Below are positions 27,001 to 30,000 of a DNA stretch of 64,000 nucleotides, in pieces. The position numbers are program-made. The stretch comes from Escherichia coli (GTDB lineage: Bacteria; Pseudomonadota; Gammaproteobacteria; Enterobacterales; Enterobacteriaceae). Position 1 is the stretch's first letter, and every line of letters begins with the position of its first letter. Location: assembly GCF_016026235.1 (NCBI RefSeq), contig NZ_CP065614.1. One strand, given 5' to 3'.

Positions 27001-30000
27001 CAGCGAGGCCCGCTTCCCTTCCGGCAGGCGTCAGCCTGCCAGGGGTTTTCGCGCGGGCTGACAGGCGGCCTCCACCGCCTGCCCTGTATCACCTGTGCCT
27101 GCTGCCCTGAAGGATGTAGTGACCACCGAGGAAAACCGCCTGCTGATTCGCCACAAAATCGCAGATTTCATCAACAATCTGCGCGGTGGTGAGCGGTTTC
27201 TGCCCCATTTCACGACGCCGCGCATTAATCACGGCCCTGTAATTACGCAGAATTTCGCGGGTTTCTGTGCTGATATTCATGACATGTGCTCCCCGTCCAG
27301 CGCCTGTAACACAACGTCCATTGCTTCGCGTTCCTCCCTGACGAATGCGTCACCGTCGCCCCCGTTCTCACTCCCGACGGCATACAGGCGCTTCATTTCA
27401 CTGCCTGCCAGCGCCATCACTTTTTCCAGCATCACCGCAGGGACTGTTACAAGACGGTTTACGCGCTTTTCCTCCATCAGTTCATTGACAATATCGGAAA
27501 CAACTCTGTCACATGCGCCATATACAAAAGCATCGTCCAGCCGCTGCATGACGGTTTCCAGCTCATCGTCTGTCAGACTCCAGTCCTGGGCTATGTGACG
27601 CACATCCCCACGGGTCAGCACCACGGCAAAAACAAATTCACTGTCCGGCACGTCTGTATCCAGTACATCGCGGATAATTTCTTTAACAGTACATGTTCTC
27701 GTCTCCTTTACAGGGGCGGCATTGCCGCCCCGTCCGTTAATCAGTCCAGTGCCGCGTAAATCGCGTTGCATTCAGGGTGAAATACGATGTGACGCCACAA
27801 CTGCGCATCGCGCATCCGGTAAAGCTGGGTCAGTCCTGCATCCCCGCTGTCGTGGTACAGCCACAACTGGCGGTTAATCACAAGAGAAGTCAGAATGATG
27901 CCTGCGGCATCAGCACTCACGGTACGGTCAAACCAGTTTGCACCGTTCACCATGTGGAAACGGTCGCCATCCGGCATCATGTAACCGCCACCGTCCGGCA
28001 GGCGGATGAAGTGCCAGAAGCCGCCTTCATATTCCGGCATCATTTTTTTCGCCAGCGCGTACACATACGCCTCGGCATACAGAAAATCGTTGCCAAACAG
28101 GTAAGGCAGAAAGGAGAGACGGTCGCACTCTTCAACATTCAGAGTGACAGGTTTCGCATATTGCATGATGTTTTCCTCCGTTGTTCACATATTCCGCGAC
28201 ACCGGGCGGTACCGTGCCTCCATAAAAGCCAGTTCAATTTGCCATCGCAGACGGTAACAATCAGCCACTTGCTCTGCTGAATATTCATCTTCCGATAATG
28301 ATGTTAGCAATAGCACATGGCCCGCTGCTTCCAGCGTTTCCGCCTGAACTACTCGTCCTTTTCGACGATTCTCGCTGAGCAGTCGGGTTTTACTGATTAA
28401 TGCTTTTTCGGGAGGAAGTGATACGGCAATGAGACGTGCAGGAAAGGGAGCTCCGGCTTTTTTATTACCTGAATTGCCTATCATTACAGTGGTTTCACCG
28501 TTCTTACCGCAATCCAGCCCGCGCAGAAAATCCATCATGTCAAAGCGCATTCCTTCTGCAGTTAACCAGCGCAATCCTCGCCAGTAAACCCGGACGATAT
28601 AATCAGCTTCTCCAAAAGCAAGTGAGCGGATACATTCGGGACGCGAACCGAATCCCCGGTCAGCAATTCGTATCTCGTCTGCCGTTTGCGCAAATCGATC
28701 CAGCCGTTCAGCGTCTCTGCTGTCGGTTAGCTCAAAATCAGTGAACTGACAGGTATGAGGATCATATCCCATATGTAGTCGCCATTCAGCGCTGCCGCCC
28801 CCGGGCGCGCTGATTGCTGTTCCATCGACAAGACGCAATCAAGGTGCGGCGGGAGTCGATGGCATGCGCGTAAGTGAACTGCCGGACTACCTGAGGCACC
28901 ACTGGCCAGAGCTGAAAGCGCAACTGCTGTCCGGCAGATACCGCCCATCCCCTGTGAGAAGAGTATCCATACTGAAGCCCGGCGGCGGCGAACGTCTGCT
29001 GGGCATCCAGATGGTGGTGGATCGCTTCATCCAGCAGGCTATGATGCAGGTATTGCAGGCACTGTGAGATAGCTCGTTCAGCGACAACAGCTACGGGTTC
29101 CGTCCCGGTCGTTCGGCCCACCAGGCAGTGATACAGGCCCAGGAATATATCGGGGCCGGGTATCACTGGGTGGTCGACCTCGATCTGGAGAAGTTCTTCG
29201 ACCGGATAAATCACGACGTGCTGATGAGCCGGATAGAGAAACGAGTATCGGATAAACGGGTGTTGTCACTTATCCGCAGGTTCCTGAATGCAGGGGTGAT
29301 GGACGCAGGTCTGGTAAGGCCGGTGACAGAAGGAACGCCGCAGGGCGGCGTGATCTCGCCCCTGCTCTCAAATCTGTTCCTGCACTATGCCTTTGATATG
29401 TGGATGCAACGTCAGTGTCCCGACGTTCCCTTCGAAAGGTACGCCGATGATGGTGTGCCACGAAGGCGCGCACCAGGGACGTGAGTCCCTGTGCAGCCAT
29501 GCTGCACAAGAGATGAGGGAAGGCCCCTCGGTGTCGGCGTGCAGGCGCAGGCACCAAACCACCCACTGCTGCTGCATTTAAGAGATGTGGTGGTGAGCGA
29601 GATGGGAAAAGGTCGGACGTGAGCCGATCAGGTATGGATCGAAGAGACGAACGAAAGTGAACCGCTGATGATGTGTCGAAAGCATATAGATGATGTCAAA
29701 ACCATGGTTATCCGGCTCCGGCGTTAACGTCACGGGAAGCAGTGCAGGCATATTTTTTCCGGAAGGCAGCAGGCCACCTTTCCGGTATTGATGGCGCCAG
29801 TTGAAGAGCAGGTTATCGTTGATTCCATTTTCACGGGCAATCTGCGCCACACAGGCTCCGGGCTGCAGTGACTGCTCCACTAAGGCGATTTTGAACTCAT
29901 AAGGGAAGTTGGGGCGCCGGGGACGCTTTTTTACCCCGGGGACTTCGGGCATAACGGTACTTTCAGTAAGTACGACAGGTACTGTGGAGGCACTCCCGTA

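Follow-up and report, generated by a model that had tools for sequence, protein, structure and literature searches.

A degraded copy of the klcA (yubI) operon known from the leading regions of F-type plasmids lies in a 64,000-nucleotide stretch of Escherichia coli DNA (contig NZ_CP065614.1; hereafter the window, whose numbering is used throughout). We put the probability of this reading at about 0.8. The cluster comprises three minus-strand genes: klcA, coding for an antirestriction protein of 141 amino acids (aa), a DUF1380-family gene called as 164 aa, and a gene for a small basic protein of 63 aa. RefSeq labels them 'antirestriction protein', 'DUF1380 family protein' and 'hypothetical protein'. 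An operon of this kind is already known: it is present on F and on thousands of IncF plasmids, the family of its first gene has been solved, and its early induction has been published. In the window, intact translation signals remain for klcA and the 63-aa gene only; the start of the DUF1380 gene is out of frame, and a hairpin that precedes klcA in intact relatives has lost one of its arms.

Correspondence with the klcA operon of F

An earlier reading of the sequence alone had placed three co-directional, overlapping open reading frames (ORFs) here, and the coordinates hold: all three are on the minus strand, with overlaps of 31 and 4 nucleotides (nt). The 1.4-kb block that they form has matches of at least 90% identity in 5000 or more plasmid records, F included, and orthologues of 35-56% protein identity keep the gene order. 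Pairwise ratios of non-synonymous to synonymous polymorphism (pN/pS) against F, pVir68 and pVTB933v-2 are 0.06-0.13 for klcA, 0.16-0.33 for DUF1380 and, from small counts, about 0.1 for the 63-aa gene. The spread of the block, these ratios and the divergent orthologues argue that the three ORFs are real genes and not chance occurrences. No homology backs two long antisense ORFs on the plus strand (27095-27598 and 27777-28280), which we took to be shadows of the three genes.

The nearest known system is the klcA/yubI operon of F itself (NC_002483, 56755-57837), with the same genes in the same order and orientation relative to the transfer origin (oriT), with about 93% DNA identity. Two substitutions separate the 63-aa proteins, and KlcA differs at 6 of 141 residues. 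The two copies differ in that F has two TGTAC units at the DUF1380 start and the window one, and in that the window carries another allele of the central part of DUF1380. They also differ in their distance from the nicking site (nic): the F operon lies about 8.4-9.5 kb from it and the window cluster 5.2-6.3 kb, a shortening that is due to the deletion of the Frpo2 block described below.

The leading-region placement proposed in the sequence-only reading is confirmed by an exact match to the F-type nic sequence at 21868-21885, flanked by traM and the SLT gene X/ygfA. As this sequence sits on the plus strand, the plus strand is the transferred strand (T-strand), and DNA to the right of nic is the first to enter a recipient. 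The cluster genes being on the minus strand, the T-strand is their template, a geometry that is required for expression from single-stranded DNA (PMC9849209). That leading regions are enriched in anti-defence genes, as the same reading had stated, agrees with published work (PMC11541004). The host replicon is a pINV-like virulence plasmid of IncF type, of enteroinvasive E. coli/Shigella. The window shares 99.8-100% identity with pCFSAN029787_01, from enteroinvasive E. coli O96:H19, and 99.3-99.5% with Shigella boydii plasmids, and is set apart from both by its insertion sequence (IS) content; pCFSAN029787_01, for instance, has an extra IS600.

The KlcA protein

By homology, the 141-aa product belongs to the KlcA/ArdB family of antirestriction proteins. 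A KlcA/ArdB pattern had been noticed from the sequence alone, with a profile search suggested as a check, and this search returned Pfam PF03230 ('Antirestrict') at E 1.1e-26 over model positions 2-92 of 92. The protein further matches the solved KlcA of the IncP-1 plasmid pBP136 (2KMG; E 1e-18, residues 5-141 against 6-142), ArdB over its full length (2WJ9; E 4e-7) and a PHROG anti-restriction family (E 3.7e-19). The residues conserved in 43 family members, which are R18, E35, W54, D61, S88, D90, E133 and D142 in KlcA136 numbering (PMC2836571), are all kept in the alignment with 2KMG, as R16, E32, W51, D58, S84, D86, E132 and D141. With 2KMG and 2WJ9 the window protein thus shares a full-length alignment and the conserved residues (R, E, W, D, S-x-D, HPE and the D at the C terminus), although the kinship in sequence is distant and the operon partners here are DUF1380 and the 63-aa ORF.

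The gene is intact and has a ribosome-binding site, GGAGG, 8 nt before its ATG; an identical protein is present on 136 contigs. A homologous gene was named yubI in one study of pS88 (PMC3438092). In vivo, KlcA/ArdB proteins give relief from type I restriction of all four families, and in vitro they leave EcoKI uninhibited; they do not work as DNA mimics, and the relief takes an indirect route (PMC2836571). The activity expected of the window protein from its homology is therefore indirect relief of type I restriction in vivo.

Loss of a proposed hairpin promoter

Early expression of this operon in recipients has been documented: RNA sequencing after donor elimination showed induction of the operon with the KlcA homologue in F and pESBL transconjugants (PMC12672017). 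In the same work, single-stranded-DNA promoters were divided into 'class 1', comprising Frpo1 and Frpo2, and 'class 2', comprising hairpins 5' of klcA and ardA; transcription starts of the class 2 hairpin 5' of klcA were located in pESBL by 5' rapid amplification of cDNA ends, and a homologue was noted in F (PMC12672017). Folding of the T-strand upstream of klcA gives a hairpin of about 240 nt in F, pVir68 and pVTB933v-2, with energies of -111.9 to -113.2 kcal/mol and z-scores of -5.6 to -5.7. The distal arm in these intact relatives carries a -35-like TTGCAT, a 15-nt spacer and a -10-like TAAGAT, with a 3-nt bubble at the -10 position; the long hairpin, the hexamers and the bubble are all traits in common with single-stranded-DNA promoters. 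In a divergent plasmid the region upstream of klcA is over-structured as well (z -3.2). In intact plasmids, the 240-nt hairpin would act as a single-stranded-DNA promoter for the operon.

The window cannot form this structure. What is left upstream of klcA is the proximal (template) arm only, homology stopping 64 nt before the ATG. The equivalent stretch folds at -55 kcal/mol (z -0.98), no better than shuffled sequences, and the distal arm with its TTGCAT and TAAGAT boxes was found nowhere in the 64 kb. A three-way alignment with pVir68 and pVTB933v-2 places the breakpoint at an 8-nt microhomology through which the hairpin remnant joins the interior of an IS421 transposase gene. The deletion removes about 690 bp relative to pVir68 and 3.3 kb relative to the closest relative, CFSAN029787, in which at least the klcA-proximal part of the hairpin is kept. 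A search for this junction among 72,556 plasmids and 5,426 complete E. coli genomes gave no hit; either this isolate alone carries it, or it reflects a collapse in the assembly. The IS421 transposase fragment, which is truncated at both ends and marked incomplete in RefSeq, has the orientation of klcA and forms the new upstream context of the operon. A search for sigma-70-like promoters over positions 26700-29200 found none. Early, single-strand-dependent expression of the operon has thus probably been lost in the window.

A repeat polymorphism at the DUF1380 start

The second gene has lost its start. Relatives of the DUF1380 protein are typically 136-144 aa long, and the 164-aa ORF divides into a conserved core (27277-27693) and 24 initial codons (27700-27771) that form an unconserved extension into klcA. 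The canonical gene, of 140 aa, starts at ATGTACTGTACTG, 8 nt past an AAGGAG and 46 nt past the klcA stop. Compared with pVTB933v-2, the window has a 5-bp gap in ATGTAC(TGTAC)TG, by which two TGTAC units become one. The parts of the native start are still in place (AAGGAG at 27708-27703, ATG at 27694-27692, the single TGTAC at 27693-27689), and this ATG now opens only the three codons M-Y-C before a TAA (27685-27683). The core frame is open back only to an ATG at 27771, within klcA, which is without a Shine-Dalgarno sequence. The 164-aa length and the overlap with klcA are hence consequences of the 5-bp deletion, which shifted the native start; a chance open extension of 24 codons has a probability of about 0.3 and is unsurprising. 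DUF1380 translation in the window is probably much reduced, its start codon being out of frame.

The number of repeat units varies among plasmids. One copy is found in about 418 of the 5000 best plasmid matches (about 8%), and two copies in nearly all others. Three copies occur in 3 records, and four copies in at least a few, on two allele backgrounds; the four-copy allele has no reliable count, as BLAST breaks two-copy records into two overlapping pieces. Of one to four copies, only two keep the ribosome-binding site and the ATG in frame with the gene. Out-of-frame alleles sit on differing DUF1380 allele backgrounds, a distribution suggestive of recurrent slippage or recombination.

A perfect 8-bp G+C stem-loop lies between the klcA stop and the DUF1380 ribosome-binding site and is kept in relatives. 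Two further hairpins, G+C-rich, conserved and without T-runs, lie within 27021-27082, immediately past the 63-aa gene; a TTTT comes after the hairpin at 27021-27043 on the plus strand, which gives this hairpin the look of a terminator for the opposite strand.

Affiliation of DUF1380 and the 63-aa protein

The 164-aa ORF, described from the sequence alone as uncharacterised, is not without a name: it belongs to the long-catalogued DUF1380 family (PF07128), which is also represented on F. The assignment is indirect. The 164-aa ORF returned no Pfam match, and the 140-aa core no match to PF07128 even at E <= 10; the link runs through relatives, a paralogue and predicted structure. Nine of 17 aligned relatives match PF07128 (best E 8e-53), phmmer ties the protein to PF07128-matching proteins at E 1e-4 to 1e-18, and BLASTP connects it at E 3e-7 to the second DUF1380 paralogue of the plasmid family. 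A Foldseek search of AFDB50 gave top 45 matches that are overwhelmingly annotated as DUF1380, almost all of them from Enterobacterales. From these relationships the product is assigned to a divergent, post-klcA paralogue group of DUF1380. With 119 representatives among 1.84 billion, this is a very small family. Some sources name DUF1380 'YcjA', a name that we did not adopt, as it is given elsewhere to a ParB-like gene.

The AlphaFold2 model of the DUF1380 protein is all-helical, with a predicted local distance difference test score (pLDDT) of 81.6. Its 140-aa core is strongly acidic, with an isoelectric point (pI) of 4.4 and a net charge of -15. Acidity is shared with DNA-mimic antirestriction proteins of the ArdA/Ocr type, and no similarity to these was found in sequence or fold. 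Among database ORFs, P0014, P0075, P0077 and P0044 present a PF03230 antirestriction or a methylase fragment fused to DUF1380; the first three, which are clusters of one or two sequences, are probably products of frameshifts or deletions and not true domain fusions.

The ATG of the 63-aa gene overlaps the DUF1380 stop (ATGA) and is preceded by a GGGGAG ribosome-binding site, an arrangement that couples its translation to that of DUF1380. Its product is basic (pI 9.8) and identical on at least 1000 contigs. All relatives retrieved by a word-index search have 81% identity or more. Divergent orthologues were found by position, both right after DUF1380: one of 47% identity, a 58-aa ORF with the same 4-nt overlap (L012/L013), and one of 56% identity (L010/L011). 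In the latter, codon 26 is an in-frame stop in each of two independent samples (L010 4461-4637 and L011 2728-2904), and in this lineage the gene appears dispensable or inactivated. L006/L007 lack the gene. The AlphaFold2 model has two helices (pLDDT 70), and a fold search with it gave no match.

Possible roles of the two partners

The mechanism that we propose for intact plasmids is that DUF1380 and the 63-aa protein would be co-produced with KlcA from the hairpin promoter, as accessory factors for establishment or restriction evasion, possibly as an acidic-basic pair. In the window copy, the promoter arm has been deleted, the DUF1380 start frame-shifted and the Frpo2 block removed. The extended form of this proposal, in which the two proteins are an acidic-basic pair that serves both KlcA-type and methylase-type restriction evasion, as a new anti-defence effector or as a KlcA cofactor, and the (TGTAC)n tract is a slipped-strand on/off switch of DUF1380 translation, we hold to be doubtful. 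An anti-defence role for the two proteins is reasonable by context; it is a contextual guess to which the searches lent no computed support, since PADLOC returned nothing for either, PHROGs gave only families of unknown function at E > 0.02, and NCBIfam had no useful match to any of the three proteins.

The best argument for the accessory genes acting in the same process as KlcA is their linkage to it. A PF03230 gene lies directly upstream of DUF1380 in four independent divergent lineages, with DUF1380 identities of 34-41%. In L006/L007 and L010/L011, whose contigs are long enough to display it in full, the layout is an N6/N4 methylase, YubE and DUF1380, then a gap of about 356 nt, then the PF03230 gene and a DUF1380 again, and F has the matching layout of methylase-YubE-DUF1380, a gap and antirestriction-DUF1380. 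The order holds across these divergent lineages and F, which shows that klcA and DUF1380 have long been linked and that the linkage is maintained.

This linkage can be taken further, to the proposal that DUF1380, with or without the 63-aa protein, is the partner that KlcA is missing. Such a partner would account for a KlcA that is inactive in vitro (PMC2836571), and the ATGA coupling of DUF1380 to the 63-aa gene, the opposite charges of their products and the depth to which the gene order is kept all fit with it. The proposal is nonetheless improbable, the least likely of those considered here: a methylase operon without KlcA is likewise followed by DUF1380, and IncP kilC operons have klcB and korC and are not known to carry DUF1380. 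Moreover, IncP KlcA and chromosomal ArdB relieve restriction in E. coli when expressed alone (PMC2836571).

Alternatively, DUF1380 and the 63-aa protein may be independent anti-defence effectors (anti-restriction of another type, anti-CRISPR, anti-SOS or the like) that merely share the early operon of KlcA, which was the suggestion made from the sequence alone. Enrichment of leading regions in anti-defence genes (PMC11541004) and the early induction of the operon in F and pESBL (PMC12672017) are in line with this, as are the DUF1380 charge of -15, resembling that of DNA-mimic inhibitors, and the second DUF1380 paralogue that follows an orphan methylase-YubE pair. We nevertheless consider independent effectors unlikely, given that no defence or anti-defence model of PADLOC or PHROGs was matched, that about 8% of the best-matching plasmids have a frame-shifted DUF1380 start, that some lineages lack the 63-aa gene or have a stop in it, and that the DUF1380 family is tiny and confined to Enterobacterales plasmids.

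Surroundings of the cluster

The positions of the cluster and of its neighbours are collected in Table 1.

Table 1. Features of the window discussed in the text, with positions and strands
Feature	Position	Strand	Remarks
klcA/yubI-type antirestriction gene, 141 aa, intact	27741-28166	minus	PF03230, 2KMG and 2WJ9 matches
DUF1380-family ORF as called, 164 aa	27277-27771	minus	RefSeq name, Foldseek, transitive homology
Native DUF1380 start, now out of frame	27683-27708	minus	3-codon mini-ORF
Small basic protein gene, 63 aa	27089-27280	minus	orthologues, pN/pS
Perfect 8-bp G+C stem-loop, GGGGCGGC-AAT-GCCGCCCC (mRNA sense), no T-run	27713-27731	minus	identical in pVTB933v-2
klcA upstream remnant, klcA-proximal (template) arm only	28167-28230	plus	homology stops 64 nt upstream of ATG
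Deletion junction, 8-nt microhomology AAAAGCCAG/G	28223-28230		hairpin remnant to IS421 interior; three-way alignment with pVir68 and pVTB933v-2
Internal fragment of IS4-family IS421 transposase, both ends truncated	28231-28840	minus	98.9% identity to pVir68 IS421
F-type oriT nic, nick between GTGGGGTGT and GGTGCTTTT	21868-21885	plus	exact match to GTGGGGTGTGGTGCTTTT
traM	21171-21554	minus	flanks nic
SLT gene X/ygfA	21875-22477	plus	flanks nic
FinP and traJ 5' untranslated region (leader)	20974-21085		adjoin oriT
DUF932/ygeB-like gene	22773-23675		retained
ygeA-like gene	23713-24000		retained
Complete group II intron	24442-26792	plus	GTGCG start; D1-D4-7 24493-24642; ltrA 25046-26719; domains V/VI 26716-26792

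Compared with F, the window lacks ssb, yfjA/DUF905, the ParB-like yfjB (HerB), psiB, psiA and hok/flm, and passes from Frpo1 directly into the sequence that adjoins the 63-aa gene on its downstream side. The ygeA-like and ygeB-like genes are retained, as is the Frpo1 hairpin, which folds with z -6.55. Once the intron is removed, window positions 24001-24441 and 26793-26860 align to both Frpo flanks of F (14090-14640 and 19480-19870 in the numbering of F sequence L005), an alignment from which plain recombination between Frpo1 and Frpo2 would suffice as the cause of the loss of the Frpo2 block. Such recombination had been predicted, with the expectation that hok/flm would prevent it (Couturier et al. 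2023, PMC9849209). Recombination between two copies of a group II intron was considered as the cause of the deletion and rejected, because the intron-free alignment passes the insertion site towards both Frpo flanks.

The intron at 24442-26792 is inserted within the hybrid Frpo repeat in the sense of the T-strand, some 120 nt past the main hairpin, and its target sequence is present in both Frpo copies of F. Past the IS421 remnant are fragments of a second group II intron (reverse-transcriptase pieces at 28864-29484, Rfam D1-D4-2 at 29515-29633), followed by IS66-family and IS91 fragments, an IS630 (30390-31421) and lpxM/msbB2 (31575-32579). This graveyard of IS elements and introns lies where the transfer backbone meets the virulence genes.

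These surroundings bear on a further question, whether the cluster does anything at all in this plasmid. It could be a functionless relic on a virulence plasmid drifting to immobility, whose intact ORFs merely reflect recent ancestry. The promoter arm has been deleted, at a junction seen in no other searched record, no sigma-70-like promoter was found upstream (26700-29200), the DUF1380 start and the Frpo2 block are gone, and the neighbourhood is dense in IS elements and introns; in addition, the closest sequenced relative yielded no pINV transconjugants (PMC7283534). Set against this are the perfect ORFs and ribosome-binding sites of klcA and the 63-aa gene, the retention of oriT, traM, FinP/traJ and Frpo1-ygeA-ygeB, and the chance that read-through or weak double-stranded-DNA promoters may act. 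We regard a relic as quite possible, at somewhat less than even odds.

Weighing the assignment

Several observations count against reading the cluster as a klcA operon put out of action by the loss of its signals. The ORFs are still intact despite these losses, and read-through from upstream DNA may supply expression. About 418 plasmids with the one-copy TGTAC tract likewise keep intact ORFs, and the allele may somehow be translated. The DUF1380 protein of the window itself falls below the Pfam model of its family. The 240-nt hairpin is equated with the published class 2 promoter by its position 5' of klcA. Finally, for plasmid pB10, deleting klcA made no measurable difference to restriction (PMC11602122), and a benefit of KlcA in conjugation is therefore not universal.

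A degraded copy of the F-type klcA operon remains our preferred reading. The anti-defence argument rests on early expression, and early expression in the window is doubtful because both the hairpin promoter and the native DUF1380 start have been lost.

Significance

With the operon itself already described, the residual interest lies in the role of the DUF1380 and 63-aa genes and in the repeat polymorphism at the DUF1380 start. The plasmid offers a natural case of leading-region decay in a virulence plasmid, in which the klcA hairpin promoter and the DUF1380 start have been lost, and its deletion between Frpo1 and Frpo2 is a naturally occurring instance of the event predicted in PMC9849209. 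The unit that matters most for F conjugation, Frpo1-ygeA-ygeB, is kept in the window. The DUF1380 and 63-aa genes are among the most widespread plasmid genes without a function, and their tight linkage to klcA makes them reasonable targets for assays of establishment or anti-defence in F.

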